Source of the DNA: a virus
Strand: one strand, 5' to 3'
IMG/VR virus record: IMGVR_UViG_3300036772_000557
Location: 26,449 to 90,448 of that record
Length of the DNA stretch: 64,000 nucleotides
Part shown: piece after piece, positions 6,980 through 56,616 of the stretch
How positions within the stretch are numbered: position 1 is the stretch's first letter
How the letters are laid out: every line of letters starts with the position of its first letter
Notes under the pieces: model-generated
What the model was told of the DNA's origin: nothing
Seen by the model: the letters and a program-made list of their open reading frames with translations, nothing else
Database searches by the model: none
Made by a program: the position numbers and the translations under genes

Positions 6980-7738
6980 TTACTGCGTCGCCTGGATCGT
7001 CACGTTTTCGATGGTGCCAGCCGCCGCGCCGACGCCCGGGCCCGACGGGTTGATGATAAGGTTCGAGCCGCTGATCGCGTAGACCCCGCCGCCGTCGTTG
7101 TATGGCGCGGCAAACCCGAGCGTGCCGGTAAAGGTCGATCCGTCGCTCCAGGAAGCGGTGATCGTGCCGACCGTCGACCCGAGGGCCGCATTATCGACAA
7201 TCGCAGGAGAAACGGGTGAGACCGAAACGCTGAGCGTGATGTCGCGCGTGATCGCCTGCAGGCTCCAAAATGTCGCGGCGCACTGCGTGTCGGCGCATCC
7301 CATGAGCCATCTTGAGCCGTTCCATTTGGCGACTACAAAGGCGAGGTAAACCCAGGATCCGGAGAGATCTCCCGAAGACAGGCTGAGATCCGCAGTTGCC
7401 AAACCCGGATAAAAACTGCCGAAAAGCGCCTGAGAGGATGTGAGCGCGACTTGCGTCCAACTCGCTCCGTCGGTGCTGTAATAAGCAAATTTGTAGACGT
7501 ATTCGGTGGTGTCGGTGGCTGAGCCTACCGTGAGGGTGGTAGCGGCCGTCGTGCAATCGACGCTGCCGAGCAGCGAGTTCGGCGGATTGAACAGGTCGTA
7601 AGCACCTGCCCAGCCCGCAGGGACGGGAAGGGACTTGGAATAATATTCGGTGCAGCTGCCGAGCGCATGAGCCGGTCCGGCGCCGAGGCTGATCGCTGCG
7701 ATTAAAGCGGCGATGGCGGTGAGCGTCCGGAAACTCAT
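6980..7738 (-). CDS. Secreted protein: signal peptide, Cys-containing N-domain, C-terminal truncated cadherin-like domain
   Basis: MSFRTLTAIAALIAAISLGAGPAHA signal; ends TIENVTIQATQ. Start moved to the ATGA overlap. Confidence 0.75.
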   Translation of the reverse strand: MSFRTLTAIAALIAAISLGAGPAHALGSCTEYYSKSLPVPAGWAGAYDLFNPPNSLLGSVDCTTAATTLTVGSATDTTEYVYKFAYYSTDGASWTQVALTSSQALFGSFYPGLATADLSLSSGDLSGSWVYLAFVVAKWNGSRWLMGCADTQCAATFWSLQAITRDITLSVSVSPVSPAIVDNAALGSTVGTITASWSDGSTFTGTLGFAAPYNDGGGVYAISGSNLIINPSGPGVGAAAGTIENVTIQATQ

Positions 7739-8430
7739 GGGGCACCAATCGTCGTGACTTGCGCGGTGCCGTCGAGGCTCGGCGAGAGCGGCGCCGCGAG
7801 GACGACGTTGAAGCCGTCGATCCCGAATAATGGATTGCTCGAGGTTAATGTCCCCCCGTATGTAGATCCATCCGACATGTTCACCGTAGCGGTCGAAAGC
7901 ACCGTCCCCGTTGGCGTGTTGTCGGGAACCGTCACGCCTGACGGGTTCAACGTTATTGATGTGGGAGTCGACGTGGTTCCCTGGCCGCCGACGGCAGCAT
8001 AATAGGTATTGCCGCCCGCCACACTTACCGCGAGTGAGACCGATTGCGCAGCGGTACTGCTCGGAGTGAACGTCACGGTGACTCGGCATGTGGCCGCAGG
8101 AGGCGGGGGCGGGGGCGACGGCGGTGGCGTAACAGGGGCTCCCGGAGCGAGCGAGCCGGCGCAGTCGTTCGTCTGGGAAAAATCAGCCGTGTTGCCGCCG
8201 GTGAATGCGATTCCGAAAGAGATCGTCGATGTTCCGTCATTGGTCACATTGATGGTTTGGGAACTCGCGGTGCCGACGCCTATCGTAGGAAAGGTCAGAA
8301 ACGCTGGGCTGAAGGTGACCGTGTTTCCGATCGAGACCGCGACGTTCACCGTGGCTGTCGTCGCGGCAAGGAGCGTGCTGCTCGCCAGCAAGGCGCCCAT
8401 CAAGAACGGCAGAAGGAATCTCTTGTGCAT
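7735..8430 (-). CDS. Secreted protein: signal peptide, N-terminal strand, ASH/choice-of-anchor-D-like Ig domain, truncated cadherin-like domain
   Basis: MHKRFLLPF signal; LTFP..VG...QT..VTN.G...DF..TNDC..SLAPGA..C.V.VTF.P Ig motif. Confidence 0.75.
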   Translation of the reverse strand: MHKRFLLPFLMGALLASSTLLAATTATVNVAVSIGNTVTFSPAFLTFPTIGVGTASSQTINVTNDGTSTISFGIAFTGGNTADFSQTNDCAGSLAPGAPVTPPPSPPPPPPAATCRVTVTFTPSSTAAQSVSLAVSVAGGNTYYAAVGGQGTTSTPTSITLNPSGVTVPDNTPTGTVLSTATVNMSDGSTYGGTLTSSNPLFGIDGFNVVLAAPLSPSLDGTAQVTTIGAP

Positions 8431-8496
8431 AAAAGAGGCTCCTTCCCAAAGGCCCAACACGAACGAAAGAAACGAATTAAACGAATAAAGCCCTCA

Positions 8497-11217
8497 TCAA
8501 GCCGACGGCGGCGCCAAAGCGCTGGTCGGGTTGTATGGTGTGACTGTCGATCCGGTGCTCTGCCAGTAGGCGACGTCAGCCGCGGTGAGATCGCCGACAT
8601 AGCCGGGCACGTTCGGATCGATCGCGGCGGTTGGCTGAATGATTTGATAAAGGCTGGCCCCGGGCCTCGGCGTCGGCAGGGTGCCTGCATATGGGGTCAC
8701 GGTGACCCCCGTGAGGCCTTGCCAATAGGCAAGATTGGCCGGCGTAAGATCCCCGACATAGGTTGGCCCGGTCGGCTGAGTGATGAAATACAGCGCCGTC
8801 GCTGGGCTTATCGTGATCGTTTCGGTGGCCGAGCCGGTTTGCCCGGCCTCCGTCGCGGCGACGGAGAAGGCGGCCCCGGGGTCGACCGTAGCCAGGTTGC
8901 GGCTGAGCACGAGATAGGTGGTGACCCCGAGGGGCAGGCCGGTCGGAGCCGTGTACGGGACGATGTTTGAACCGGTGCCCTGCCACCAGGCGACATCTGC
9001 CGCTGTCAAATCGCCGATATAGGCTGGCGCGCCGGGCTGGGGCTGGGTGATCTTATAGAGCGCCGCCCCCGGCCGCGGCGTCGGCAGGGTGCCGTTAAAA
9101 GGGGTGACCGTCGCGCTGGTGAGCTGCCACCATAGCAGGTTGCGCGGGGACAGCGCGCTAACGTAGGCCGGGCCGATTGGCTGGGTGATGCTGTAGAGGG
9201 CGGTGCCAGGCGGTGTGGTCAGGACCGGGACGGCGCTGCTGGCAGTCAGGTAATTGGTTGACCCGGCGAAAGATACCGACAGCGTCCCGGTAAATGCTGA
9301 CCCGTCGCTCATGCGGACCGAGACCGACGCGATGACTGTCCCGGCCGTCGAATTGGCCGCAATAGACACAGTCGCGGGCGTGAGGAGCACGCTCGGCACC
9401 GGAAGCCTCGCGGGGGGTGGCGGCGTCGTACCACCGCCGCCGGCGCCGGGACCACCGCCGCCGGTAGGCGGAGGCGGCGGCGTCATATAAGGCGGTGGCA
9501 AGGGCAGCGGGGTAGGCGCTGCGGGCACTGTGCCGAGGACCCCCCATAACTGCAATGTGGCCGGACCGCCACCGATGGCGCGAATCGCCGAGACGATGCG
9601 GAACGTCCCGGTGACCATCATGTAATCGAGCTCGACCGTGTCGTAGAGGATGATGTCTTCGGGGCGCATCCACGCGGTCACATCAAACACGGTGCGGTTG
9701 CCGCCCCATGCCGCGATCAGCCGCGTCTGCTCGTTGGCGGCATCGGTCGGCAAGGGGCTGGTGCCAGCGAGGAGCGGGACATCCACCGCCCGGGGCTCGA
9801 GGGCGAGCGCGTTGGGGTTCTCGTAGTGCGGCTCGTAGACCAGGCCCGGCGCCGACCATTTTGCAATGTCGGTTTGCAGCACAGCGTCGTCGAAGGAGCT
9901 CTCGGGTTGCCAGTTGCGCTGCGAGCCCACGCGGAGCCGCCACGCGAGGGGCTGGATCGTATTGAGCGCGATGCTGGCGATCTCGACTTCGGTCAGCTTG
10001 TAGCTAGCCGTGACGGCCGGCGCCGCAATCGCCGCTCCCGTCGCCCGGCCGAGCGGGTTGAACCCCCACCAACACCCGGCCGCGTTCACAAAATCATCGA
10101 TTGCGGCGAGGCGATTGACCGGTGTCGTAGTCGTGACGAGGCTGGCCAGTTGGTTTGCGGTCGCAAGATCGAGCGCGGCCAGAGCCGTCGCGTCGACCAG
10201 GCCGCCCGCGAACTGGACGACCGCCGTGATCAATTGGCCGACCGTGTAGGACGCGGCCACCCCGTCCGCCCGAACATCCTGCCCTTGTGGCGGCGAGCCG
10301 AGCTGGATGCGCTGCGGGACGCCCGCGATCGAGATTGGCGACCATTGCCCAGGCTGGGGCGGCGCGATCACCTCCGTCCACGGCACGCCGCCGACCCTGA
10401 CCTCATTGATCGTGGTGAGACCTTGCGGCAGCGATTGCAGTTCGTAGAGTTGCTGTGTCTCATCGACAATGACTGGCTGCGCCGAAAAGAACGCGCCCCG
10501 CGCCGTCGGCTTGGGCTTGCCTTGCAGCGCGACCGGAAACGTCACATCGTAAAAATTGGTGACCAGCGGGTTGTCGATGTCGAGGCTGGCGTCGGTCGTC
10601 TGGACCGTCGCGACGAGCGTGTCGTGGGTCAGCCCGAGGATGCGTCCGACATAGACCGGGACCATGTCGGCGTCGACATCAGCGACGGGGACCAAAGGGT
10701 TCGGCGGGGTGCCCTCGTAGACCCGGAAGGTTCGACCGATCCAATGGTAGGCCGTCCATATCCAGATCGACTCGTCGATGTGGAACTGGATCGCGCCGCG
10801 GTTCGGCTGCGTGCGGACTGGCTGGCCGTAATCAGTGACGGTGATCGCGGCGCCGAGTTGGATCGGTAATCCGGTGAGGCGCGGGGAATATTCAAAGAGC
10901 GCGCCGCCGAGCGTGCGAGTGACGGTGCCGCGGTTGCAGAGCATAAGGGTGACCAGCGTGCCGCTATCGTCGAGAACATCGAATTCAACCGCGACATATG
11001 GACTGACGCGCGGTGGCGGTGGCGGCGATCGCGGCGCCGCTGGCGGGGGTGCTGGCAGCGACGGTGGGGGCGCCGGCAGCGGAGGCGGTGGCGCCGGCAC
11101 GGGTGGCGGCGCGGTCGGTGGCGCTGGCGTAGGCGCTGGCGTCGGCGTCGACTCGGGTGGTGGTGCGCCCGGCAGTGCTGGCGGCTGGGATGGTGGGGTT
11201 GGTGGGCCAATCGGCAT
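8497..11217 (-). CDS. Putative tail hub/tip protein with polyproline N-terminus, cadherin-like domain and four WQ repeats
   Basis: Located downstream of the tape measure and fibre genes; LQGKPKP..RG..F...P..VD motif; 906 aa. Confidence 0.7.
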   Translation of the reverse strand: MPIGPPTPPSQPPALPGAPPPESTPTPAPTPAPPTAPPPVPAPPPPLPAPPPSLPAPPPAAPRSPPPPPRVSPYVAVEFDVLDDSGTLVTLMLCNRGTVTRTLGGALFEYSPRLTGLPIQLGAAITVTDYGQPVRTQPNRGAIQFHIDESIWIWTAYHWIGRTFRVYEGTPPNPLVPVADVDADMVPVYVGRILGLTHDTLVATVQTTDASLDIDNPLVTNFYDVTFPVALQGKPKPTARGAFFSAQPVIVDETQQLYELQSLPQGLTTINEVRVGGVPWTEVIAPPQPGQWSPISIAGVPQRIQLGSPPQGQDVRADGVAASYTVGQLITAVVQFAGGLVDATALAALDLATANQLASLVTTTTPVNRLAAIDDFVNAAGCWWGFNPLGRATGAAIAAPAVTASYKLTEVEIASIALNTIQPLAWRLRVGSQRNWQPESSFDDAVLQTDIAKWSAPGLVYEPHYENPNALALEPRAVDVPLLAGTSPLPTDAANEQTRLIAAWGGNRTVFDVTAWMRPEDIILYDTVELDYMMVTGTFRIVSAIRAIGGGPATLQLWGVLGTVPAAPTPLPLPPPYMTPPPPPTGGGGPGAGGGGTTPPPPARLPVPSVLLTPATVSIAANSTAGTVIASVSVRMSDGSAFTGTLSVSFAGSTNYLTASSAVPVLTTPPGTALYSITQPIGPAYVSALSPRNLLWWQLTSATVTPFNGTLPTPRPGAALYKITQPQPGAPAYIGDLTAADVAWWQGTGSNIVPYTAPTGLPLGVTTYLVLSRNLATVDPGAAFSVAATEAGQTGSATETITISPATALYFITQPTGPTYVGDLTPANLAYWQGLTGVTVTPYAGTLPTPRPGASLYQIIQPTAAIDPNVPGYVGDLTAADVAYWQSTGSTVTPYNPTSALAPPSA

Positions 11218-13718: not shown

Positions 13719-14192
13719 TTACTGACTGACGTCCAGAAGCATCAGGGAACCCGGGACGCCGCCAGCGCCCGCGACGCCATCGATCACTGCATACGAATTG
13801 AGCTTGGAAGCAAACTCGCCTTGCGATAGCACGGCATAGCCGTTCAGTTTTGATGCTTTCTCGTCACCACCCAGCACGGCATAACTATTGATCTTAGAAG
13901 CATTTTCGGCTCCGATAGGCTGCATCACGGCATATCCGTTTAGCTTGGAAAGGTACTCTCCCTGCCCCAGCACAGCGTAGCCATTAATCTTCGAGGCACG
14001 CTCATCAATCGCGTTCAGAACGGCGGACCCCATGATCTTCGACGCGCGCTCATCAATCGGCTGCAGGACCGCATAGCTAGTGATCTTCGATGCGCACTCT
14101 GCTGCGCTACAGACGGCTTCTGCCGGATTGCTGTGTATGATGGCGGCGAGCAAGGGCCCGGCCAGCAGTGCGCGACGCAGCCACACTGACAT
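13719..14192 (-). CDS. Secreted repeat protein with 7 x ASK(I/L)N(G/S)YAV(L/M/I)
   Basis: Signal-like N-terminus ending PAEA; 15-17 aa imperfect repeats. Confidence 0.8.
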   Translation of the reverse strand: MSVWLRRALLAGPLLAAIIHSNPAEAVCSAAECASKITSYAVLQPIDERASKIMGSAVLNAIDERASKINGYAVLGQGEYLSKLNGYAVMQPIGAENASKINSYAVLGGDEKASKLNGYAVLSQGEFASKLNSYAVIDGVAGAGGVPGSLMLLDVSQ

Positions 14193-15314: not shown

Positions 15315-15325
15315 TAGCAAGGCTC

Positions 15326-35665: not shown

Positions 35666-36019
35666 TTATTGGGTCGCGACGATGCTAACCATTTGTGTAG
35701 TGTCGCCATCGGCTCCGAGACCCGGCCCATCCGGATTGACGATCACATTATTTCCGGAGAGCGCAAACGTCGAGGAATCGTCAGAAAATGGTGTCGTGAA
35801 GGCAATCGTTCCCGTGAACGGTGCCCCGTTCGACCAAGTCACATTGACTGCGCTGACCACCGTGCTTCCAGACGCATCAGACGAGAGCGACGGCGTCGGT
35901 GGATCGAAGGTTATGACCAGCTGGGGCACGTGATGCAGGATTACGTTCCCCATGACATTTATGGCCAGCATCATCGCCGTCGAAATGGCGAATAGGAACC
36001 AAAACAGCCGCTGATTCAC
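35666..36019 (-). CDS. Secreted single truncated cadherin-like domain protein (candidate pilin-like subunit)
   Basis: GTG start overlapping the upstream TGA; signal NQRLFWFLFAISTAMMLA; ends TTQMVSIVATQ. Confidence 0.7.
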   Translation of the reverse strand: MNQRLFWFLFAISTAMMLAINVMGNVILHHVPQLVITFDPPTPSLSSDASGSTVVSAVNVTWSNGAPFTGTIAFTTPFSDDSSTFALSGNNVIVNPDGPGLGADGDTTQMVSIVATQ

Positions 36020-44796: not shown

Positions 44797-45712
44797 GTGC
44801 CCGCTCCTCTGATCGGAATAATTGGGGTGACTGCTTTACGACAGCGAAGGCCAATCCAATGGAAGCCCGCACTGCTGGATCGCTGAGCTTGTAGACCCAG
44901 CGGTCGTAGAGGAAGTGCACGAAGCCCAGCCCGGCGCGTAACGCCACGGCGGTCACCGTTATCCGCATTGAGAGCCCTGGCGCGTAGAACAGCAGCCAAA
45001 AGACGATGGCGCCGACGATGAGCAGCAGAGCAACGAATAGCCACGGCGACCGCCCATGCTGGTTCGCCATCACATGGCTCGATATCCCGATGGCCGTCAG
45101 CGAGTGGTTGAAGATGAGGAAACCCAACATGAACAGGGACTCCTGGTGGAGCGCCCACGGGCTCAGATAACCTCTCATCTCGGCGAAGGGCATGAGAATC
45201 CTTGGTAGCAGGATCATTCCAAGGAGGGTCGTCAGGACAAGGCAAAGCGTCATGGCGACGCGGCGCTGGCCTACGACATCGGCACCTCTATGCTTTCTCC
45301 TGTAGATCTGGATCACGCCGAAGTGCTGCATCCCGAAGTGGTAGGCGTTCCAGAAGAAATAGATCACCAGCATGATCACAAAGGGCTGGCGGTAGTCGCT
45401 CCAATGGTAGACCCGCACTCCCAAAGTGGCAGGGTTTATCTCGTAGACCTTGTCGACGAAGACCCCGCTGAGCATCGCCGCGAGCATGATACAGGCCGGA
45501 ACCAGGATGAACTTCACCCAGCGCTCGACCATGATCTGGCGGAACGACCGGCTTCCCCAGGCGACAGCCAGGGGCATGATGAGATGCGCGGAGTTGAAGA
45601 CAACGAAGAGACCCATCATAACCGGAAACGGGGCAAAGAGCATCGCCACCCCGACCACCGGCCCGCTCAAGATCCATACGCCGTCCCACAGCGGGCCGCG
45701 TATCCAGGTCAT
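44789..45712 (-). CDS. Polytopic membrane protein with conserved His motifs (possible membrane metalloenzyme)
   Basis: About 8 TMs; NSAH, WNAYHFGMQHFG, FNH and HFLYD motifs; ATGA-coupled start. Confidence 0.7.
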   Translation of the reverse strand: MTWIRGPLWDGVWILSGPVVGVAMLFAPFPVMMGLFVVFNSAHLIMPLAVAWGSRSFRQIMVERWVKFILVPACIMLAAMLSGVFVDKVYEINPATLGVRVYHWSDYRQPFVIMLVIYFFWNAYHFGMQHFGVIQIYRRKHRGADVVGQRRVAMTLCLVLTTLLGMILLPRILMPFAEMRGYLSPWALHQESLFMLGFLIFNHSLTAIGISSHVMANQHGRSPWLFVALLLIVGAIVFWLLFYAPGLSMRITVTAVALRAGLGFVHFLYDRWVYKLSDPAVRASIGLAFAVVKQSPQLFRSEERAHA

Positions 45713-46827
45713 GGCGTGAGCTTTATCCCTGTGTTGCACTGCCCACTTGCCCAGTTGGCGCAGGAGAATACACGGATGTATTGAACGCGCATGTGCTGAG
45801 TCACGTTGGGGGCGGCGCAGGGGCCACCGAAGTAGCACTGCTGGAACTCCTGGGCGCCCAACATCAGACCCCAGAATTGACGTTGACTGTATTGAAAGCC
45901 GGCGCTTCCGCCGTCCCAGTGCTCGTAGCAGCCGGTAGGGCTGGCGCCCTGGTTGCCGGTAGTGGTATGAACACCGTCTATATAGGTGCACTTGGCAATA
46001 CCCGTCGCGCCGTCAGTGGTCAGCAACACCCCATAATCGTGGTAGCTGAACTCGTTGTTGGGAGCGGGCGAACCGCCATTCCACAAGAAGTTGCCGCCCG
46101 AGTACGCGAACGCGCCGTTGCCACTATAACCCGTGTCCGACTCTATGAAATCCCACTCGTTGAATGGCCCCGCTGTATTGAGGCTGAAGAAGCCGAACTC
46201 CTCGCAGTAGGTGCCTCCCGGCTGGCCCTGGGCGCAATCGGGCACACCGGCGTATGGGTTGACATCGCTCGGAAGTATTTGCAAGGCAAACTGCAGGTAG
46301 ATGCCCTGTGGAAAGTTATTGGTCTGGGCTGGGGTTCCCCCGCCCCACCCTCCGTTGCCCAGACTCATGGTCGTTGCCGAGACGCCGTTGTTGCCATCGG
46401 CGTTGGTGAATGCCATCTCGAGGACGTTCTTTCCGATCGACGAGTCGTTTATTATATTGAAGTCGGAGCAGGGCGCCGTGCCGGGCGAGTTATACGATGA
46501 GGGCCACCACAGCGCCGTGCTCTGTCCATTGCACCCAAGCCAGGTGGCTATATTCGAGAAGTTGTAGGTATTGCCGTTTACGGTGAAATCGTTCGTGGTC
46601 GAGAAGTCGTAATTGGCGGCGCAAGTCGTGTACCCTGCCGCCACTGCGGGGGCCGGCAGGTCGCCGATAATGTCTGGGCCAATGTCGCAGTGGGTGCCGC
46701 CACCCGACGTGGGCGCGGGCACCACAGTTACCGTAAGGTTCGCAGTCGGTGCGGCGAAGATGGCTGCTGGCGTTAAGACCAACGCTCCAGCGAATATAAT
46801 GGCCGTCGCTTGCTTTAAAACGCTCAT
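45709..46827 (-). CDS. Secreted GH16-like glycoside hydrolase (Cys-rich)
   Basis: Signal peptide; EWDFIE (ExDxxE) catalytic motif; YHDYG..., YIDG, MRVQYIRV. Confidence 0.7.
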   Translation of the reverse strand: MSVLKQATAIIFAGALVLTPAAIFAAPTANLTVTVVPAPTSGGGTHCDIGPDIIGDLPAPAVAAGYTTCAANYDFSTTNDFTVNGNTYNFSNIATWLGCNGQSTALWWPSSYNSPGTAPCSDFNIINDSSIGKNVLEMAFTNADGNNGVSATTMSLGNGGWGGGTPAQTNNFPQGIYLQFALQILPSDVNPYAGVPDCAQGQPGGTYCEEFGFFSLNTAGPFNEWDFIESDTGYSGNGAFAYSGGNFLWNGGSPAPNNEFSYHDYGVLLTTDGATGIAKCTYIDGVHTTTGNQGASPTGCYEHWDGGSAGFQYSQRQFWGLMLGAQEFQQCYFGGPCAAPNVTQHMRVQYIRVFSCANWASGQCNTGIKLTP

Positions 46828-46880: not shown

Positions 46881-48263
46881 CTACCTAGTTGTCCCGACGA
46901 ACGTCGTTATGCCGTAAGGAACGGTGGACGTGAACACGCCGGCACTGGGAACCAGATAGGACGGCACGCCAGAGGACGCGGAGCCCGCAGATAGGTTGCC
47001 GTCTGTCCCCAGCCACCCGATGGGTGTGCCGGAAGTGATGTAGGGGGTGACATTGCCGGTTATGGTAGCATTCTGAAGGCCGAACGTGATGCTCGGAGCG
47101 TCTGAGCCGTAGTTGAGGGCGATGATCGCGAATTTGGCGCTGTCTGGGCTCTTGAAAGCTGCGATAAAGATGTTCGGATACCCCGGCCCCGATGTCCCGA
47201 TCCGCACCCACCCGGGCCGGACAAACCTCGACCAGTTCCCAAAACCATAGTAACGCTTGGGGATCTGACCGAGGCCCAACGCAACGTCACCCACAACCCC
47301 GCCATTGCAGTTGCACACCGCGTTCCAGTAGTTCCAGGCGTTGACCCCACCAGTGACAACCGCGTCGTATATCCAGTGTTGAGACCCGCCGAGGGCGTCG
47401 TTGATGTCGTAGTTCGCGGCACCGGAAAAATCAGATGCCTCATCCTCCCAGACATGGCGCGTGCCGTCCACGGTCATGCAGGTGATGCAACCGTATTGGT
47501 GCGTCGAAAACATATCGACCTGCGCGTTCGCTGTGGGATTTCCCTCGATCGCCGAAATGTAGGAATTGAAATTATCCGGGGCCTCCGTTTCGGGAGAAAT
47601 CAACTTGACTGGCGGATTTAACGCATGCAGCAGGGGTCCAAGGACGGCCGCATAATTTGCTGTGGCGTCCGCGGAATAGAGGAAACCGCCGCAGCAATCG
47701 GGTTCATTTTCCGTCGTCATAGCGTATATGGGAATACCGGCGGCAGCCTGACCGGCAGCCCAGTTGGCGAGCCCTTGAGCCGAGATCTGATAGTTAGCCG
47801 AGGCCCCATAGGTACTCGGGTTGACCGTCCACGCGGTCGCGAACAGCGTGGCGCCGCGCGCCTTAGCGCCAGCAGACGAGACAGCGGAGGGAATGCCCTG
47901 GCCATCACCCGCCACTATAGTGTCTTTAAATGTTACGCCGTTGTCCGGGGTATCTATGCCTTCCCGCAGCAAGGTCAATCCAATGCCCGGCCCCGAGCAC
48001 CCCGGATCAGTGGCGTCCACGCAGTACAGCGCATCCAGCGTGGGGGGATTGAGGTTCCCGACCCAGGCGTTGGAGGCTCCGAAACCGTCTATGGTCTGGT
48101 GCACGTCGCTAAAGTTGGCGACGAAGGCGGCTGGAGGGGGCGGTCCGTCCGCAACGATCTCTACCGATAAGGTCGCGGCGGACGTGGCGGCCTGCACCGC
48201 GCGCGGTACACCCGCCAAAAGCACAGCCAGGAGTGCGACCGAAGCCACCCACGATACTCTCAT
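46881..48263 (-). CDS. Secreted GH30 glycoside hydrolase
   Basis: QTIDGFGAS, GIGL..LR, ENEPD (acid/base), WEDE (nucleophile), AW.YW, KRYY..G.WSRFVRPG.VRI. Confidence 0.88.
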   Translation of the reverse strand: MRVSWVASVALLAVLLAGVPRAVQAATSAATLSVEIVADGPPPPAAFVANFSDVHQTIDGFGASNAWVGNLNPPTLDALYCVDATDPGCSGPGIGLTLLREGIDTPDNGVTFKDTIVAGDGQGIPSAVSSAGAKARGATLFATAWTVNPSTYGASANYQISAQGLANWAAGQAAAGIPIYAMTTENEPDCCGGFLYSADATANYAAVLGPLLHALNPPVKLISPETEAPDNFNSYISAIEGNPTANAQVDMFSTHQYGCITCMTVDGTRHVWEDEASDFSGAANYDINDALGGSQHWIYDAVVTGGVNAWNYWNAVCNCNGGVVGDVALGLGQIPKRYYGFGNWSRFVRPGWVRIGTSGPGYPNIFIAAFKSPDSAKFAIIALNYGSDAPSITFGLQNATITGNVTPYITSGTPIGWLGTDGNLSAGSASSGVPSYLVPSAGVFTSTVPYGITTFVGTTR

Positions 48264-48329: not shown

Positions 48330-49127
48330 CTAATGGATGGACGCGCCCATCATGACAGTAGTGCAACCTGTGCCATCACTGGGACTGCCGTCCGAACATT
48401 GCGACGCATTCCAGTAAGGGTCCTGCCACGTGAACGTGACTGGCCCGGGGCCTACGGCGCCGGGGCTGCCCAACACGGTAATTCCGTCTGTGTTGCAGTC
48501 ATCAACTAATACAGAATAGCCACCAGGATCGATGTTATTTCCCTGACAGACGTCCCCCGCGGAGAACACCCAGAGTAGGGATGAATACGCTGTCGGCGAT
48601 ATCGTCATGGACGGATTTAACGCGTCTTGATCAATCGGTCCGGTGATCGTATCGACAGAGGCCGCGCCGGAATACTCGACAATTCCGCAGTCGCAGAAAT
48701 TATCAGAAGGAAGGGTACCTGTATAGTTAACAAATATTTGCGTTGGATTTCCCGTAACGCCCACTTTGTACCACATTAATATGTATTCACTATACGGATC
48801 CCATGTAACTGGCGGGGTAAGGTTGTAAGAATTACCGGCATTGTCCGTGATAGAAGTCGGAGCGGAACCATTTTGGTGAGAATATGCAACCACAGTATTG
48901 CCACTGCCGATCGCCGCCGGAAGGTTCCAGGTAACCGTACTGCCTGAAATCGTGGTACTGTGATGACTTGTTACTCCACGTACCACAGCGACGCCGCCAC
49001 CTGAGGGCTGGGAGGGCTGGATGGTCATCGTCAGGGTTGCGCTGGGCGCGGCCGTGCCAGCTACTGCCGGCACCAGAGTCAGCGCCGCGGCGGCCATAAG
49101 GCCAGCAACTCGCGTTGCAACACGCAT
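48330..49127 (-). CDS. Secreted beta-sandwich protein, paralogous to the N-terminal repeats of 50047..53010
   Basis: Signal peptide; SGN.VV....ITD.AGNSY motif. Confidence 0.7.
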   Translation of the reverse strand: MRVATRVAGLMAAAALTLVPAVAGTAAPSATLTMTIQPSQPSGGGVAVVRGVTSHHSTTISGSTVTWNLPAAIGSGNTVVAYSHQNGSAPTSITDNAGNSYNLTPPVTWDPYSEYILMWYKVGVTGNPTQIFVNYTGTLPSDNFCDCGIVEYSGAASVDTITGPIDQDALNPSMTISPTAYSSLLWVFSAGDVCQGNNIDPGGYSVLVDDCNTDGITVLGSPGAVGPGPVTFTWQDPYWNASQCSDGSPSDGTGCTTVMMGASIH

Positions 49128-49221: not shown

Positions 49222-49812
49222 TTACAGAAGCGAGAGGTCCGCGCGATTGCGATCGAAAGTCAGGAAGAAGGGCATCGTCAGCCGTTGCCTTCCCTCTACT
49301 CGCGTCACCCCATGCTCGTGATCTAAACTGGCGGTAAACGCGATGAGCATGCCCGTCTTCGGCTTGATCACTATATCGAGACCGGTGAAATAGAACTCTC
49401 CACCCTGATACTCGTCATTGAGGTAGACGATTCCAGAGAAGTCACGGTGAGCCATGGCGTGCAGTGAGCCGTCTGGATTAGCATTATCGGCGTGCGGCGG
49501 CATTTGGGTGCCCACCGGCCAGCTCATGATTTGCAGCAGGTCTGGATAAACCGGTTGCTTCAGCCGATACAACTCCGCGATGAGGGCTGTCGCCCGGCGC
49601 AACGCATCACGCATATGGCCAGCCAGCTCGCAGTACACCTTTGCCACATCTGAATACCAGATGAAACGCTTATCCCAAAAGCCAGGCGCGCGATTGACAA
49701 TTAGAGTCGACAGGTTTCGGTATGCTTCGCAAAGGTCGTCACAAACAGTGGCTTCGAGAAACTTTTCCCTGATCAAGCACGTTTCGCCCGCCTCCGGCAG
49801 GTTTACTGCCAT
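49222..49812 (-). CDS. 2OG-Fe(II) oxygenase, prolyl-hydroxylase-like
   Basis: PHAD...RDFSGIVYLNDEYQGGEFYF...KP..G..I.F....HGV..V...R (HxD...H...R). Confidence 0.9.
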   Translation of the reverse strand: MAVNLPEAGETCLIREKFLEATVCDDLCEAYRNLSTLIVNRAPGFWDKRFIWYSDVAKVYCELAGHMRDALRRATALIAELYRLKQPVYPDLLQIMSWPVGTQMPPHADNANPDGSLHAMAHRDFSGIVYLNDEYQGGEFYFTGLDIVIKPKTGMLIAFTASLDHEHGVTRVEGRQRLTMPFFLTFDRNRADLSLL

Positions 49813-50042
49813 ACGGCTACAATGTTCGTCGCGGCTGTTCCGGTGCTCCACACCCGTTTCACACGGATCGGATGCCAGCCCGCCGCCGCGGCAGTAAAGG
49901 TCACCGTCTCGCCATTCAGCATGGTCACCGTTAGATCTCCGGCGATTCCGACATAGAGCGCGGTCGTCTTTGCCGGCAAGTCGACGCTGTCGCTGGGCGT
50001 TACCGCGACGGCATTTGGAACCGGATCGGAAATGTCAGCCAT
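49803..50042 (-). CDS. Head-spike base protein (RcGTA Rcc01079-like)
   Basis: AVTPSD..DL...T.ALYVG.AGDL.V....G..VTF....AGWHPIRV.RV..TGT.A..IVA pattern, 79 aa. Confidence 0.75.
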   Translation of the reverse strand: MADISDPVPNAVAVTPSDSVDLPAKTTALYVGIAGDLTVTMLNGETVTFTAAAAGWHPIRVKRVWSTGTAATNIVAVWQ

Positions 50043-50046: not shown

Positions 50047-53010
50047 TCAAACCACCCACGTACCGAAGCCGAGGCGGATTTTGAAGAGGCCGCCCGCGGA
50101 GAAGCCGACGCCGCCATACGCCCCGATATTGAAGCGCGAGGCTAGCGGGATCGTGTTGCCGTAGAAGTCCTGCGGCCCGGGGTTGATGGAATACGCGGCG
50201 CTCAAATCCAGCCCCGCGCCGATCATCGGCGAGCTCGGCAATAGCTGGTAGGCAGTCGGTTGCGGCCGCCCATATCCACCCACTACGCCACCCGAGCCAG
50301 CTTTCACGAGCTTCGGGTCCACCGATAAGCCGTTCGCTTCCTGGCTCGCGCCGGATTTGAAGGCAGCAAACGAGGTGTAAGAAGTGCCGTTGTAGCTGAC
50401 GTGAAAATTAGTTGGCTGCAGGTAATCGTTGCCGTTCAACGTCGCTCCCGAGCCGTACACGGCGACGGGTTGACTGCTACCACTTACGATCGAATAGAAG
50501 ATGTTATTTGTTATGTGACCAGTAGTAGCGTTGTACTGCACGACAATGGCCGATCGCCCCGTCGTGTAAACCGTATTGTTATGCACGAGTACGCCAGTAG
50601 GCGCATTACCTGACGAATCCGAGCCGATCGAGATATCCGCGTAGACAGAATTGGCGGTGGCAAACGAGTCGTTTCCTTCAAGGATATTGTACCGCGCCAC
50701 ACAACCCGAATGCGTGCCACCGCTAAAGTTATAGAAAAAGATCCCGGCACCAAAGCACTCATGGATATAATTGTACTCCATGACGCAATTCTGGCAGTCG
50801 ATATCAAAATCTATGCCGTCGCCGTCTATATTCACGTTGCACTTCTGCAGGTAGACTTCATTGAATTTTATGACGGAGTCTGTGGCCCAATTATATTCGA
50901 TGCCAGCGTTGCCTTGGTTGTCCGCAGCGCCGCAATTATTGACGTAATTGAAACTTATCTCTGAATTGGTACACTGCGTTACGAGGATGCCGGAACCGCT
51001 CTGGTATGTTGGGCCCGATCCTGACCCCGGGCAAGCCGAGACCACACAGCGCGTCACCAGCACATTGTCGAAGAGCCGATGAGTTGAAAATCCAGATGAG
51101 CCGGTATTAAGCCACGGCCCGCTGAAAGCGATACCGGCAGCGCCGCCGACCGAACCTGTCGCGCCCGTGCAATTTGAGACGGTGCAATCCTCGATTGTAA
51201 CGTTGCTCAGCACAGCGGTCGCATGGTCGGCAGCGATGCAGAGGATGCCACCACGACCAAAGGCGCTGATATCGAGGTTCGACAGGACGATGTCGGAGAG
51301 ACCGGTTGTGACTGTTATGTTGAGGAAGACTCCGCTAAAGCCGGTTGAGCCATCTCCTGTAATGACGAGATCGTGGACCACGATGTCGCCGATATTGGTC
51401 AACTCGACCCCATGCGCGCCCGCAGCTGATATGGTGGCCGTTCCCGTCCCATAACTCCCGATCGTCAGAGGGCTCGCGGATGTTGGAGGGGTACCTGAGT
51501 AATTTGCAGTGCCGAGCGCCAGGCCACCCGTGAAAACATTGGCACCCTCGAAGAGGATCGTGTCCCCCGCAGAATAGGTCTGTGCCGCGACGTGAGCAGT
51601 CGTCTGCCAAGGAGTGGACGGAGAGGTGCCGTTGTTCGAATTGCTGCCGGAATTCGCCACATAGTAGGTTGTGCCGCCCGGTGGAGGCGGAGGAGGTGGA
51701 GGAGGCGGTGCGGATCCCAGAGAAAAACCCCATAGAGCACTGCCGTCACCGCTTCCTGTGGTTGCTGATACAGTATCCGTCGAACCTGTACCATCTTTCC
51801 ATTCTGACAGCCACGTGCTGGAAACGTTCTGGGCCGATGTAAAGCCTGACCCGATAGTGACCGAACCACTTCCGACATCGACACAATAGCCGAGGACCAA
51901 GTCCGAAGCGTCGGACGGTATCGAAACCGAAAGCGTAGAAGCGCCACTCGTGGCGTTTGTAGGGCTGGAGCCGGTCTCGGAATATGAGCCGGAGAATCCA
52001 GACCATTCGTCGATCATCATGACAGCAAAAGCTGGTGACGTGCCGCCGTCAGATATCGTCGCCGTTATGGTCGATGGACTATTTGTTAGCTCTGCATTCG
52101 AAAAGAATGTCGCCCAATAGTATGGAGTACCGCCGCCGCCTGAATAAAACCCATACTTCGTCCCGACGACAGTGTAGGAATTCGACTTGTCATCAGTGAC
52201 CGAGGCCAGAGTGGCCAGGCCGCTGCTTGCGCCGACCCATCCCACGACCCCAGTAACAACGTCGCCGGACGTAACCGGAGACGTAAAGGTGGCGGCGGGA
52301 TTATCACCGGATTGCCCACTGGTTGCTTTACCCTGGACATGAGCATAACTCGGGGGCGGTGGCGGTGGAGGCGGAGGTGGCGGAGGCGCCCCCGATGGAA
52401 TTAGCGCCATAGCCTTTATATATGCCGCGGCCGCGCCTGTATACGTCGGCGCCATAACCTGACTGGTGCCGGTCGCTGTGGTCCATTCACCTAAAAAGAA
52501 ATTATTATGCTCAGTTACCGGCAGATCCGCCGTAAGAACCGAACCTCCACCATATGCGTCCGCATACGCGATACACAGATCGCCGACATTGATCGGTGAG
52601 AGCGTAGTCGAAATCGTCCCGCTACCCGCGCTGTTTATTGTACTGCTGTCTGCCGAGGACGACACGGCGCCGGAACCGAGGCCATTCCATTCGTCAATTA
52701 TCAAACCCGCGAAGTTCGCCACTGAGCCGGTAATTGTCCCCGTAACGATGGTCGGTCCATTGGTAATCGGATTAGTGGAATAAAATGCTACTATATACCA
52801 ATTGTTGCCGCTATCGAATAGGTGAGGAAGAGTCGTGTACGCATTGGACTGATCGTCTGTTACCGTAAGGGTATCGGTACCGGATGAATTTCCCTGCCAT
52901 CCCACATGGCCAGTGACAACATTCCCAGACGTGACGGCAGTAGAAAACGTTGCGCTAGGAGTATTGCTGCCGGGTTGGTTTAAGGTGCCTTGGACATGAG
53001 TAAATGACAT
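50047..53010 (-). CDS. Large head-fibre/spike-like protein: two repeat domains, two polyproline linkers, right-handed beta-helix
   Basis: TTYYVA.SGS.SN.GTSPS.PW.T...GD.ILF start of the helix; DG.GIDFD..CQN.V.EYNY.H repeats; adjacent to the spike base gene; no signal peptide. Confidence 0.8.
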   Translation of the reverse strand: MSFTHVQGTLNQPGSNTPSATFSTAVTSGNVVTGHVGWQGNSSGTDTLTVTDDQSNAYTTLPHLFDSGNNWYIVAFYSTNPITNGPTIVTGTITGSVANFAGLIIDEWNGLGSGAVSSSADSSTINSAGSGTISTTLSPINVGDLCIAYADAYGGGSVLTADLPVTEHNNFFLGEWTTATGTSQVMAPTYTGAAAAYIKAMALIPSGAPPPPPPPPPPPPSYAHVQGKATSGQSGDNPAATFTSPVTSGDVVTGVVGWVGASSGLATLASVTDDKSNSYTVVGTKYGFYSGGGGTPYYWATFFSNAELTNSPSTITATISDGGTSPAFAVMMIDEWSGFSGSYSETGSSPTNATSGASTLSVSIPSDASDLVLGYCVDVGSGSVTIGSGFTSAQNVSSTWLSEWKDGTGSTDTVSATTGSGDGSALWGFSLGSAPPPPPPPPPPGGTTYYVANSGSNSNNGTSPSTPWQTTAHVAAQTYSAGDTILFEGANVFTGGLALGTANYSGTPPTSASPLTIGSYGTGTATISAAGAHGVELTNIGDIVVHDLVITGDGSTGFSGVFLNITVTTGLSDIVLSNLDISAFGRGGILCIAADHATAVLSNVTIEDCTVSNCTGATGSVGGAAGIAFSGPWLNTGSSGFSTHRLFDNVLVTRCVVSACPGSGSGPTYQSGSGILVTQCTNSEISFNYVNNCGAADNQGNAGIEYNWATDSVIKFNEVYLQKCNVNIDGDGIDFDIDCQNCVMEYNYIHECFGAGIFFYNFSGGTHSGCVARYNILEGNDSFATANSVYADISIGSDSSGNAPTGVLVHNNTVYTTGRSAIVVQYNATTGHITNNIFYSIVSGSSQPVAVYGSGATLNGNDYLQPTNFHVSYNGTSYTSFAAFKSGASQEANGLSVDPKLVKAGSGGVVGGYGRPQPTAYQLLPSSPMIGAGLDLSAAYSINPGPQDFYGNTIPLASRFNIGAYGGVGFSAGGLFKIRLGFGTWVV

Positions 53011-53013
53011 GAT

Positions 53014-53760
53014 TCATTTATCCCGACAGTCTAGGGGTTTACGAGCGCGCAATTTATTGACATGACCATCAACGGGCGTGCCGTCTGGGTGCCGGCCCAT
53101 GAAGTAGTGCTTTCGCCAAGCAGCCTTTAGCGTGTCTGCATCGCCAGCATGAAACCGACGCATGAAGTCGTTACGCGAAGCCGTGAAAGCCGCATATCGG
53201 GTCTGCAGCTCACGGTTCCCCGAGAGGTCTCGGAGTTCGGGATGACAGTCGCTTATCGCCTGCTTGCGTACCGGGAAGATGAAGCAGAAGGGCTCCCCCT
53301 TCTCAAAGGCGACCGATCCTGGCGCCGTCATCCGCCAGTTCATCGTGAAGGGATACGGCAACCAGTCGCTCTCCATGATCCCGGTCAGCGGAGAGATCCC
53401 GTGTTTGGGCGAATTGAACGGCCCGGTGGCAAGCAAATCCCATTCCGCGTCGGTCTGAAAGATGTAGTCGGTGTGAAACGTCACGACGCCGCTCGTGAAG
53501 TGAGAGCGGCAGAAGTTTGCCACGTATTGGTTGGGCTCAAGCGAACGGACGATCAGGTCCTCGGCCCGTGGCCCGCCGTTCCATTCGAGCGATACGCCAA
53601 ACGGGCAGAGAATGTCCCAGCCGTGGGCATTGGCTATCGTCAGCGGCAGACAGCGATAGGCATGGCGCGCCGGAAATTCGTCCATCCATTTGCGTGCTAC
53701 CTGCGCTGGTGCAATTTCGGGCGGCTGTCGATTGAGCGCAAAACAAGTGAGGGCGGTCAT
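53014..53760 (-). CDS. DUF6065 family protein
   Basis: R.WMD.....AYRCLPL.IAN.HGW...WNGG...GP.N.PK.GI.PL.G..E.DW.PYPFTMNW...FEKGEPFC..FP. Confidence 0.8.
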   Translation of the reverse strand: MTALTCFALNRQPPEIAPAQVARKWMDEFPARHAYRCLPLTIANAHGWDILCPFGVSLEWNGGPRAEDLIVRSLEPNQYVANFCRSHFTSGVVTFHTDYIFQTDAEWDLLATGPFNSPKHGISPLTGIMESDWLPYPFTMNWRMTAPGSVAFEKGEPFCFIFPVRKQAISDCHPELRDLSGNRELQTRYAAFTASRNDFMRRFHAGDADTLKAAWRKHYFMGRHPDGTPVDGHVNKLRARKPLDCRDK

Positions 53761-53761
53761 T

Positions 53762-55750
53762 TTATTGTAGACACGTCGGCATCATCCCATGCTCGTAACA
53801 GTATTTCGCAGGCAGTGTATATGTGGTTCCCGACAATGGATCGACCAACGGCCACCGATCCGAACCGAAGAACACTGGCTTCGAGCTCAGATAAAACGAG
53901 AGCGGTATATTCTGATCGCTAATGGCCGGATCCCATACAACCGCATTGTGGAAAAAGTCGTAATTTCCATGACGGATCGCGGGACACTTGTCCCCGTTCG
54001 CCGATACACAGGACGCGGCGGCAGAGCCGATATCGCTCAGAATCTCAGGGTCTCCCCCGTGCCCATAAGCAGTATCGTTGGCTTCGCCGCCGAGCGAGAA
54101 GATGGCAGGGCCAGGGGAGTTGAAAACGTAGCTCTGGTAAACCCAACCATGCGCCGCGTCGCTGCGTCCAGGAGTACCCATGACGTTGCCAATAAAGGAG
54201 TGCCAGTAGTAATAAGACGCTAATTGAGAGGCGCGGATCGGGTAGCAGCAGCCGCCTGGAGTCCCATTGATGTCATCGTATGTAATGTTGTTGATATAAT
54301 CGGTAAACTTCGTACGATACCCGGTCAATTGATTGCGGAAATAGGTCTGATATGGATTCGACCCCCACGTACCATCACCATCGACACTAAAGGACCAGTT
54401 GCCCTCGAACAGAACGTGGTGTGCGCCCATCCAGTGACTAGCGTTGAGCCCGCTCTCGATATTCGGCCCCTCACTAAAGCCGAAGGCGTCATCGACGTAG
54501 TTGTACGCGATCACCGAGCCGTTGCCACCCTTCCGCATCACCATCGGCTTGTTATTAAGCATCGAGATGCTGTTTTCGATCAGAACCTCAGACGTCCCTT
54601 CATCAAGCGTCCAGTTGTAGCCGGCGCCGCCACTGGTCGGCCACGCTCCCTTGTGGTCGTAAACCCCTTCTACCTGATCACGAAAGCCGGAAACGATCCA
54701 GATCGTTCCGTTCGCTGAGATTGTGTCCTCGACGTTTTTGACCCAGCAATAGGCACACACGACCATGCGCACATCCGCAAAGTCCGCATTTCGCAGGGTC
54801 ATATCTTCAAGGCCAGCATAAGTCGTAAACGTCTGGCTAAACCGCGCTAGATGCGCCGCCCGACTGGTTCGATAGGTGATCATTACCGGATCATCAAACG
54901 TGACCGTGCAACTCGTTCCAGGGCATGGACCAGGTCCGACCGTCGCGATTTGTTTCATCTCCTCAATGTAACGATCACAGCCATCATTGCAAAAAAAGTC
55001 AGGCGGTTGGCCACCCGCTTGATCGTTGGGCAAAGCCGGATTGTGTCCGTTAAACGAGATCCGCCGATCGGGCGTTGCCAACACCTGACCGCCGAATGCC
55101 CAATCTGGTTGCCATCCCAAATTCGAGGATTCATCAAGCAAAACGATCTGCCCGACCGAGAGACCAGACGTACTGGCAACTTGTATAGTGTTCGACCCAG
55201 ATACTGCATCGACAGCCAGATTCGTGCTCCCGGCAAGGCTGTTATCGAATTCATTAGGCCCCATAATGAAGTGCGCCGAGGCGCAGTTTCCGCCTTGAAC
55301 GCCGACGCTTGCCCCGTCTGTACGTTGAATAAGCGTTCCGTCCGTCCCTGCCCCCGCGCCACGCACAGTTACGGATTTGTTGATGAATACTTGGTGGCAA
55401 TCACCGATAGTGAATGTTCCAGCAGAGAGCGAGACTACTTGACCAGTGGGGCAGCCATCCACGGCAGCTTGAATGCTCGCGGCGTCGTCCATACCGCCGC
55501 CCCTCGGGCTGACCGTCGCACACACGGTGCTGCGGCTCGGAATGCCGCCCACCGATTGCAACCCCGCCATTTTCCAATTTGCGTATGCGCTCCTCTCGGG
55601 TGGAAGCAGGCCCACTGTCGGATCGCTGCCACCTCCGCTAGCCGAGGTGACTGTGATCGCGAGATTCTTCGTCACACTGGCCGCATGCGCAGTCGCCATC
55701 GCCATCGCGGATGCAAAGACGGCCACAGCAAAAAGAAGAGGTTTTCCCAT
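53762..55750 (-). CDS. Secreted pectate-lyase-superfamily/GH55-like beta-helix protein
   Basis: Signal ending ATAHA; DDAA.IQAAVD.CP.G.VV.L.AGTF...S.TVRGAG; GAGGAG RBS. Confidence 0.8.
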   Translation of the reverse strand: MGKPLLFAVAVFASAMAMATAHAASVTKNLAITVTSASGGGSDPTVGLLPPERSAYANWKMAGLQSVGGIPSRSTVCATVSPRGGGMDDAASIQAAVDGCPTGQVVSLSAGTFTIGDCHQVFINKSVTVRGAGAGTDGTLIQRTDGASVGVQGGNCASAHFIMGPNEFDNSLAGSTNLAVDAVSGSNTIQVASTSGLSVGQIVLLDESSNLGWQPDWAFGGQVLATPDRRISFNGHNPALPNDQAGGQPPDFFCNDGCDRYIEEMKQIATVGPGPCPGTSCTVTFDDPVMITYRTSRAAHLARFSQTFTTYAGLEDMTLRNADFADVRMVVCAYCWVKNVEDTISANGTIWIVSGFRDQVEGVYDHKGAWPTSGGAGYNWTLDEGTSEVLIENSISMLNNKPMVMRKGGNGSVIAYNYVDDAFGFSEGPNIESGLNASHWMGAHHVLFEGNWSFSVDGDGTWGSNPYQTYFRNQLTGYRTKFTDYINNITYDDINGTPGGCCYPIRASQLASYYYWHSFIGNVMGTPGRSDAAHGWVYQSYVFNSPGPAIFSLGGEANDTAYGHGGDPEILSDIGSAAASCVSANGDKCPAIRHGNYDFFHNAVVWDPAISDQNIPLSFYLSSKPVFFGSDRWPLVDPLSGTTYTLPAKYCYEHGMMPTCLQ

Positions 55751-55761
55751 TTGCCCGCTCC

Positions 55762-56616
55762 TCACTGCACGGCGGTGAGGGTGACGTTCTGAACGGTTCC
55801 GCCGTCTTTGCTGACGCCGGAGCCTGCCGGATCGATGTAGAGGCTGCTTCCAGATAGGGCAAAGGTGCCCCCGTCATTACTGTAGGGCTGCGCAAAACCA
55901 ATGGTGCCAGCAAATGGGTGGCTCCCGTTCACATCGTCGCTCCAATCCACATTTACGGTAGCGACCGCGGTGCCGGGAGGGCTATCGGCTGTGATCGTCG
56001 GATTAGCTGGATTGAAGCTCATCACGAGGCTCGGAGGCGGCGGCGCGCTCGGGGTAAAGGAGATATCCACCCAATAGTTGCTCGCCTGCCAGGTACTGTT
56101 AGGCCGCAGCAGTGACGATCCGTAGATGTAGACCCCGTTTCCCAAAGGCGCGGCGCCGTTTGCCAGCGCGATCAGCGGCCCCGAGGTTACCTGATTGGCC
56201 AACCCTTGCTGGTCATCGGCGTAATGGCCGCCCTTGACGAAATAGGTCGCGATGTAGGTTTTGTTGGCCGTGATCGTCAGCGGCGTGGAGAAATCCAGCT
56301 CTTCCCAACATGGCACCGAGCGGCAAGGTTCGGTGGAGACGCTCTTGAAGGCCAGCCGCGCGCCGCTCGTGTCATCAAAGATGCCGACCGAATATCCGCT
56401 CGAGCTCTTCGCGCCTCGGTAAAACCGCACGCCCTTAATGGTTCCGGCCTGCGTGCTGTAGAACTGCACGCCGAGAGTGACCGAGTTCGTGTCGGGATCG
56501 ACCGGTGTCTTGGGAGTGTCGGTCCCGAAAAGCGTAACCACCGTCTGCGCGTGAGCCGTCATGGAGAGGAGGGCTGCCGCAACAATCAACAGCCACGCCG
56601 TCGAGCCGATTTTCAT
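55762..56616 (-). CDS. Secreted DUF4082-domain protein with C-terminal truncated cadherin-like domain
   Basis: D..SV.LGV.F.S..AG.I.GVRFY...W....F.TP..I.AN.TY.A.Y...NGVY.YG....P...SNYWVD..F; ends TVQNVTLTAVQ. Confidence 0.85.
   Translation of the reverse strand: MKIGSTAWLLIVAAALLSMTAHAQTVVTLFGTDTPKTPVDPDTNSVTLGVQFYSTQAGTIKGVRFYRGAKSSSGYSVGIFDDTSGARLAFKSVSTEPCRSVPCWEELDFSTPLTITANKTYIATYFVKGGHYADDQQGLANQVTSGPLIALANGAAPLGNGVYIYGSSLLRPNSTWQASNYWVDISFTPSAPPPPSLVMSFNPANPTITADSPPGTAVATVNVDWSDDVNGSHPFAGTIGFAQPYSNDGGTFALSGSSLYIDPAGSGVSKDGGTVQNVTLTAVQ

Follow-up and report, generated by a model that had tools for sequence, protein, structure and literature searches.

The two parts of one split cadherin-like domain are carried on separate genes of a single prophage. 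We analyzed a window of 64,000 nucleotides (nt), bases 26449-90448 of the 90-kb IMG/VR provirus record IMGVR_UViG_3300036772_000557, in which all genes lie on the minus strand. Four of its exported proteins (sockets, or acceptors) end in a cadherin-like domain that stops at its sixth strand, F, and five (plugs, or donors) begin, behind their signal peptides, with the seventh strand, G, as an isolated segment. Most members of this set of four sockets and five plugs lie inside a glycan-targeting cassette in the interval between the portal and protease genes. Judging from the sequences, the system may be a variant of donor-strand complementation, of which the prophage carries a multi-part set, and its pieces probably snap together into binder-enzyme complexes. 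A first-pass annotation of the window had proposed this interpretation; taken as a whole, we find it partly supported.

Four exported proteins end one strand short of a cadherin-like domain

The domain is about 85 residues long and forms the C-terminus of four exported proteins, each with a stop codon immediately after strand F. The copies (6980-7237, 7735-7974, 35666-35926, and 55762-56031) show 33-45% identity to the first, and the proteins terminate in ...IQATQ (6980-7738), ...IVATQ (35666-36019), ...LTAVQ (55762-56616), and ...TTIGAP (7735-8430). A search within the record re-detected the four copies (E 1e-52 to 1e-4) and found an additional one in 4238-4699, which the first-pass annotation had missed. 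The four sockets, and two complete copies with which they can be compared, are:

55762..56616, minus strand: acceptor only; signal peptide, DUF4082 module, A-F domain (55762-56031), ending ...LTAVQ-stop (Pfam, alignments A2 and A3, AlphaFold2)
6980..7738, minus strand: acceptor only; signal peptide, cysteine-containing N-terminal domain of no assigned family, A-F domain (6980-7237), ending ...IQATQ-stop
7735..8430, minus strand: donor and acceptor; signal peptide, strand ATTATVNVAVS (8332-8364), choice-of-anchor-D/ASH immunoglobulin (Ig) domain, poly-Pro linker, A-F domain (7735-7974)
35666..36019, minus strand: small, acceptor only; hydrophobic N-terminal signal-anchor and A-F domain (35666-35926), ending ...IVATQ-stop
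4238..4699, minus strand: complete copy (4238-4510) with its own C-terminal G strand, AAVKMRLF, and no signal peptide; a comparison, not an acceptor
8806..9390, minus strand: complete copy in the tail protein 8497-11217, with A-E at about 9205-9390, an insertion of about 110 residues, and F-G at 8806-8874

The DUF4082 assignment (PF13313, residues 33-183 of 55762-56616) is strong, at 120.4 bits against a cut-off of 28.4 (E 7.5e-35). Both matches to the Ig domain of 7735-8430 fall below cut-off (NCBIfam choice_anch_D, E 1.9e-7; Pfam ASH, E 9.5e-5). An ATGA overlap joins 7735-8430 to 6980-7738. A database protein nearly identical to 6980-7738 (P0011) likewise ends at ATQ, and a homolog of 35666-36019 (P0015) has an identical layout; a viral search with 35666-36019 as query gave no matches.

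That four proteins end at strand F of a shared domain had been noted in the first-pass annotation, and the alignment, the immediate stops, and a family-wide profile all agree. We built the profile from the four window copies and searched 1.84 billion representative proteins with it, obtaining 545 proteins at E<=1e-3. Among the best 150 of these, the final profile position coincides with the C-terminal residue in 81, and 11 extend just one residue past it (92/150), with the conserved ending ...(D)GGT-x-Q-N-V-T-I-V-A-T-Q-COOH. Tandem proteins (P0001, P0002, P0005, and P0007) carry both forms: their internal copies extend into G-x2-S-x-S-A-N-I-x-I-T-V-T, and the final copy stops at ...ATQ. Because internal copies have an extra strand that final copies lack, we conclude that the family has a seventh strand, which is systematically missing from C-terminal copies. 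Members in the database are annotated solely as 'hypothetical' or 'DUF4082'. We rejected a pseudogene or frameshift as the origin of the truncation because a complete signal peptide and a start codon separate the halves.

The missing strand heads five exported proteins

Five proteins of the window share a second pattern, in which a classical signal peptide is followed by A-x-[ST]-x-x-L-x-V-x-[IV] and then by a Gly/Pro linker. A regular expression for this pattern matches at 55646-55681, 48153-48188, 46720-46752, 49017-49049, and 8332-8364, and nowhere else in the 90-kb record. For three of the donor genes we corrected the start codons (ATG 55750, 48263, and 49127). One of the five is the two-ended protein 7735..8430 listed above; the others are donors only:

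53762..55750, minus strand: enzyme; signal peptide, G strand ASVTKNLAITVT (55646-55681), Gly linker, large beta-helix-type domain
46881..48263, minus strand: glycoside hydrolase family 30 (GH30)-like enzyme; signal peptide, strand ATSAATLSVEIV (48153-48188), Pro linker
45709..46827, minus strand: GH16-like protein (ExDxxE motif EWDFIE); signal peptide, APTANLTVTVV (46720-46752), Gly linker
48330..49127, minus strand: 265-residue protein of no assigned family; signal peptide, APSATLTMTIQ (49017-49049), Gly linker

To score these N-termini we used a 14-column G-strand matrix derived from 33 internal strands of unrelated database proteins, with no donor in the training set, and scanned the window and the fetched loci in six frames, 226,555 positions in all (99.99th percentile, 14.9 bits). 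The first-pass annotation had seen in the five mature N-termini a lone beta-strand, and had equated it with the missing cadherin-type G strand. Both statements hold, in that a matrix made from internal strands picks the five out: ASVTKNLAITVT of 53762-55750 scores 18.9 bits (rank 11), ATSAATLSVEIV of 46881-48263 18.0 bits (rank 14), APTANLTVTVV of 45709-46827 14.4 bits (rank 28), APSATLTMTIQ of 48330-49127 12.9 bits (rank 42), and ATTATVNVAVS of 7735-8430 11.2 bits (rank 65). About 20 of the 30 top-scoring positions come directly after a signal peptide, and the rest include genuine internal G strands. The spacing agrees as well. The alternating hydrophobic strand begins 8 residues past the Q in 27 of 38 internal segments, and the 5-8 residues between mature N-terminus and plug strand equal the Q-to-strand spacing of undivided domains. 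The C-terminal copies, then, are the domain without its last strand, and the plug N-termini are that G strand.

The copy in 8497-11217 does run on into a G strand, as had been noted; its G segment GQTGSATETITIS reaches 19.0 bits, though the insertion interrupts the domain. The segment 8497-9300 of this protein holds four copies of a unit of about 45 residues (ALYxITQPxGPxYVGDLTxAxxAxWQ...VTPY), two of them inserted between strands E and F of the cadherin-like domain and two following the domain.

The acceptor 55762-56616 and the donor 53762-55750 meet at a TGA-GGAG-N7-ATG junction, which indicates translational coupling. The GH30-like enzyme matches the NCBIfam XynC-like family at E 1.2e-19, below the family cut-off. 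The GH16-like protein has no match in Pfam or NCBIfam and just four homologs in the database. The 265-residue protein 48330-49127 is weakly similar (E 9e-5) to a domain of about 200 residues that occurs in two N-terminal copies in 50047-53010, a 987-residue beta-helix protein with neither a signal peptide nor a donor strand.

These layouts bear on the division of labor that the first-pass annotation had suggested, with acceptor-only tips, two-ended extenders, and donor-only caps. It fits 55762-56616 and 6980-7738 (acceptor only), 7735-8430 (both ends), and the enzymes (donor only). It is not supported for 35666-36019 as an extender, since this protein has no donor strand; we rejected it as a donor, its matrix match falling within the hydrophobic anchor.

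Split and fused forms in host genomes and a second phage

We compared gene order in genomes of one alphaproteobacterial order and one viral contig; a related-locus search from one single protein led to four loci. Of 244 genomes from the host order (a 'Stellaceae' metagenome-assembled genome included), 36 have the domain; in a class-wide sample of 401 genomes only 1 has it, namely the centre genome. The module is mainly chromosomal, not phage-specific, and widespread in one bacterial order; on the strength of the 36 genomes, the earlier label of a phage-encoded system is not supported.

At 10 of the 14 host-clade loci, a gene ending in ...ATQ-stop (mostly DUF4082) is followed by a gene that overlaps it or lies within 120 nt, and this next gene encodes a signal peptide, a strand, an Ig or ASH domain in some arrangements, and a right-handed beta-helix enzyme. 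Eight of the ten N-termini score 14.3-25.1 bits on the G-strand matrix; scores of at least 14.9 bits occur in 1.7% of 895 open reading frames (ORFs), the donors themselves counted. A donor strand followed by ASH, the layout of 7735-8430, stands downstream of acceptors in loci L020, L022, L023, and L045. Locus L008 has the same gene pair as 55762-56616 and 53762-55750 of the window. The second viral contig (L064) carries terminase, portal, a DUF4082 acceptor, and a strand-first beta-helix enzyme, in the gene order of the window.

The two halves also occur as single proteins, with fused relatives found for two of the enzyme families. P0106 (910 residues) unites an N-terminal module, strands A-F, a G strand, GGGG, and an enzyme sharing 35% identity with 53762-55750 (E 2e-101); the aligned region begins at the strand and linker of the window protein. 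Judged from its matching C-terminus, P0111 is a fused relative of the L008 enzyme with the same layout. In P0154, a fused GH16-like form (signal peptide, Ig domain, and GH16-like domain), the last Ig strand aligns with APTANLTVTVV (alignment A4). Where split and fused forms coexist, this is classically taken to argue that the separated parts continue to function jointly. A further protein, P0030, fuses Ig, G strand, and a GH16-like domain; since its enzyme portion lacks homology to the GH16-like protein of the window, it supports the principle only.

Other arrangements occur as well. Loci L063 (G439:C41:34500-38800) and L062 (G461:C12:41600-45900) contain arrays of two to three small genes with a pilin-like layout, each encoding a signal peptide, a plug strand, a 2-residue spacer, and an A-F domain ending in ...TASQ(P); in L062, a beta-helix enzyme with a plug comes directly after the array. 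In L046, L049-L053, and L055, a short ORF downstream of acceptors ending in ...ITLIATQP-stop has a signal-peptide-like beginning (MMRLIAFLAA...) but no further coding sequence, apparently a decayed plug gene. Both in the phage and in host genomes (L057:2803-3558; L061:2811-3548), the gene immediately downstream of the one for the GH16-like plug protein encodes a conserved multi-pass membrane protein (MTWIRG...; 44789-45718 in the window).

Fold and complex predictions

Neither Pfam nor NCBIfam matched the cadherin-like domain in any of the four copies, so the label rests on comparison of folds. With an alignment of 60 sequences, AlphaFold2 (AF2) modeled the 89-residue domain 55762-56031 at a predicted local distance difference test (pLDDT) of 92.4 and a predicted template-modeling score (pTM) of 0.81. 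The model has six strands (2-7, 22-31, 37-39/43-46, 57-60, 63-66, and 85-88), the number that the first-pass annotation had expected of the acceptor domain alone, with the last of them at the C-terminus. With 13 sequences the AF2 model was poor (pLDDT 64.9), and Foldseek returned nothing usable for it.

Among 48,161 PDB representatives compared with VIA-align, the top 50 structural neighbors of the 60-sequence model are all extracellular cadherin (EC) domains (50/50), over 71-85 residues, with a root-mean-square deviation of 2.4-4.0 and Z values of 5.8-7.2. These Z values are middling, and 'cadherin-like' is therefore a description of the fold, not of family membership. In single-domain targets the aligned range ends about 15 residues short of the chain end (2wbx, 6..87/102; 2ee0, 11..96/114), as is consistent with a model that comprises strands A-F only. 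Foldseek against PDB and BFVD with the 60-sequence model gave no match at E<=0.001; its weak top rows are cadherins, the best at E 0.089 (probability 0.98). A profile search of PDB likewise gave nothing significant, with cadherins at E 0.14 or worse. By eye, the calcium motifs DRE and DxNDN are absent from the A3/A5 consensus and from the segments between tandem repeats.

We made one complex prediction, with acceptor 55762-56031, supplied with its alignment, as one chain and mature residues 1-40 of the donor (55562-55681) as the other. The score was 0.55 against 0.00 for the best of three controls, with the verdict 'weak support'. At least 95% of contacts agreed in these runs, and the pLDDT of the partner was at least 53. 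In the calibration of this method, the mark was passed by 58 of 80 solved complexes and by 2 of 110 mismatched pairs, and at scores of <=0.60 it was passed by only 7 of the 80 solved complexes and by both passing mismatches. The modeled score is compatible with docking and does not establish it.

We also looked for assembly machinery. The PapD-like chaperone family (PF00345) and the usher family (PF00577) went unmatched in the phage record and in G001-G003, three of four host genomes that carry the gene pair; each matched only in G004, on a contig other than that of the gene pair, and the E. coli control for the usher was positive. Strand donation, if it occurs, would therefore be chaperone-free.

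Setting of the genes in the prophage

The structural genes that mark the window as phage DNA are:

60588-62015, minus strand: terminase
56895-59408, minus strand: portal
40942-43470, minus strand: protease/scaffold
39335-40864, minus strand: major capsid-like protein
36016-37005, minus strand: head-tail adaptor
17105-25753, minus strand: tail protein of 2882 residues

Portal and protease genes flank a cassette of about 13 kb that encodes exported glycan-related proteins. A 2OG-Fe(II) oxygenase and a DUF6065 protein are found in this cassette and a radical SAM protein in the structural region (49222-49851, 53014-53760, and 30786-32018). The small socket 35666-36019 lies between the head-tail adaptor gene and the head-tail genes. 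The adaptor itself (36016-37005) has a C-terminal extension of about 140 residues ending in ...LTVFVQ-stop, and its stop codon overlaps 35666-36019 by 4 nt. In the tail region, 5913-6863 and 8497-11217 (minus strand) have in common a proline-rich N-terminus, MPIGPPTPP, and a long poly-Pro tract; poly-Pro linkers recur in many other proteins of this phage and in host-clade acceptor proteins. Three tail-module proteins carry classical signal peptides (13719-14192, 14208-15320, and 15326-16171), the first of which consists of repeats of ASKINGYAVL-like units.

A model for assembly and its alternatives

We suggest the following model. Gene fission has split one cadherin-like beta-sandwich exactly in the F-G loop. 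The socket proteins retain a binding or uncharacterized module together with strands A-F and the conserved ...VTIVATQ carboxy-terminus. The plug proteins are exported separately, and cleavage of their signal peptides exposes the detached G strand, laid out as about 5-8 residues, an alternating L/I-x-V/I-x-V, a flexible Gly/Pro linker, and a glycan-active domain. Outside the cytoplasm, the plug strand would insert beside strand F of the socket and complete the fold, thereby tying enzyme to binder non-covalently. The principle would be that of donor-strand complementation, in a heterotypic form that uses no chaperone or usher; 7735-8430, which has both ends, could bridge or chain. We infer binding, the choice of partner, stoichiometry, and a role in degrading or remodeling host surface polysaccharide. 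The truncation, the identity of the plug as the G strand, the synteny, and the fused relatives are all seen in the sequences themselves; docking of plug on socket we regard as the likeliest mechanism, and as probable.

A wider version of this model is possible if doubtful. In it, the split domain would serve as a plug-and-socket standard that needs no chaperone and is open to horizontal exchange, such that any plug enzyme of phage or host docks on any socket lectin, membrane anchor, or extender. The prophage could then load its glycanases onto host sockets, or the reverse, and cellulosome-like complexes or short fibers could form on the cell envelope or outside it.

Several observations weigh against docking. 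The sockets 35666-36019 and 6980-7738 have no adjacent plug in the window. Some of the syntenic loci are orthologous, so they represent fewer than 10 independent events. At six host loci the GH16-like plug gene adjoins a protein with its own G strand (...ATQGGQALSMEFSI-stop); these loci also carry a membrane-protein gene of the 44789-45718 type, and genomes with ATQGGQALSMEFSI-ending proteins hold G-less acceptors elsewhere too. A second acceptor subfamily (...ITLIATQP-stop) lacks a signal peptide that the plug proteins downstream of it possess, and the plug gene following these acceptors is intact in L048 and L054 and reduced to decayed remnants in about seven loci. AF2 folds A-F alone with high confidence, which gives no indication that the domain without a partner is unstable or grooved, and the single complex prediction is weak and reported no interface.

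Some of these points would be expected if the split of a fused lectin-Ig-enzyme gene had left a relic without interaction, in which a stable six-strand remnant and an enzyme whose strand is a leftover linker act independently. Such a relic would fit the folding of A-F at a pLDDT of 92 on its own, the acceptors that have no neighboring donor, the donors that adjoin complete domains, and the weak complex prediction. A useless 12-residue strand, however, would not keep scores like those of internal G strands across enzyme families and many genomes, nor would the cut have been kept to a single residue position in 92 of the 150 representatives of the family, and we consider this explanation unlikely. 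Less likely again is that the main product is a homopolymeric fiber, in which plug-and-socket proteins form pilin-like head-to-tail polymers, with the enzymes and DUF4082 proteins as minor ends. The L062 and L063 arrays of small proteins (signal peptide, strand, 2-residue spacer, and A-F domain) have just such a pilin-like form, and the window has one plug-and-socket protein, 7735-8430. Far more common than any other arrangement, though, is a pair in which a single acceptor-only gene precedes a single donor-only enzyme gene, and no usher or chaperone is found in the phage or in three of the four host genomes.

The open edges might instead serve other partners, with the truncated domain pairing with an envelope or virion protein and the enzyme strand acting as a sorting or tethering signal for a component of secretion or of the outer membrane. 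The membrane-anchored 35666-36019 in the head-tail module, the ...ATQP-stop subfamily without signal peptides, and the signal peptides on many tail-module proteins of the phage could be understood in this way. Against it, the plug corresponds in sequence to the G strand of the family itself, preceding loop included, fused proteins place the strand in the cadherin-like domain itself, and we found no candidate for a third partner; we rate this the least probable of the explanations, slightly behind the fiber.

Relation to known systems

Chaperone-usher pili, with the FimH tip adhesin and FimG, are the standard case of donor-strand complementation and exchange. The split domain follows the same logic. 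FimH, a two-domain lectin with its G-less Ig domain at the C-terminal end, resembles an acceptor-only tip, and the strand comes from the N-terminal extension of the next subunit, two-ended subunits being the extenders. The G-less Ig domain of the subunit has its counterpart here (92/150 and six AF2 strands), and so, by computed score, does the N-terminal strand. In contrast to chaperone-usher systems, the phage and 3/4 host genomes lack both an usher and a PapD-like chaperone, the fold is cadherin-like and not that of a pilin, the donors are large enzymes, and the components come mostly as 1:1 pairs, not polymers. In cellulosomes, each of the two partners, cohesin and dockerin, is a complete domain, and they dock surface to surface in a calcium-dependent manner. 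As is predicted for the phage set, glycan-degrading enzymes there bear a small docking element, binding or scaffold proteins bear the receptor, and the partners are modular and exchangeable, whereas here one domain is shared between two chains. SpyTag/SpyCatcher is an engineered split Ig-like domain locked by an isopeptide bond. It too is cut before the last strand, and its strand peptide re-docks; the split described here is natural and gives no indication of isopeptide chemistry.

Strand donation without a chaperone has been described for TasA (PMC9674648), archaeal bundling pili (PMC9245690), threads (PMC9715654), and cannulae (bioRxiv 10.1101/2024.12.30.630787). In all of these, secreted proteins donate a terminal strand into the sheet of a neighbor extracytoplasmically, without an usher. 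They are homopolymers of one subunit, whereas here a binder and enzymes are predicted to be joined, and the split in our proteins, unlike theirs, is the demonstrable fission of one domain that has fused relatives. The baseplate of Lactococcus phage Tuc2009 offers a structural precedent. In its crystal structure, a hairpin of BppU completes the Ig-like sandwich of BppA domain 2, giving a composite that looks like an Ig domain of titin (PMC4742702). There too, in a phage, a short piece of one protein completes an Ig-like sheet and so attaches a carbohydrate-binding accessory protein (PMC4742702), as is predicted here from sequence and model. The Tuc2009 piece is a C-terminal beta-hairpin of a virion protein in a baseplate assembled in the cytoplasm; here it would be a single N-terminal strand on Sec-exported enzymes. 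Given this BppU-BppA precedent, the first-pass statement that no such system had been described in phages was too strong. Our literature search found nothing on the function of DUF4082 beyond passing mentions, and nothing relevant linking donor-strand complementation with glycoside hydrolases.

If the pieces do join, they would represent a natural, widespread way of assembling secreted multi-protein machines from separately exported parts, one that would dispense with chaperones and ushers, with docking domains that depend on calcium, and with covalent chemistry. The same pairing, a 12-residue tag with an 85-residue catcher, would provide an orthogonal system for protein tagging. It would also give a role to DUF4082 proteins and to hundreds of 'hypothetical' proteins ending in ...ATQ, and would explain why Sec-exported enzymes are encoded in the structural operons of phages.

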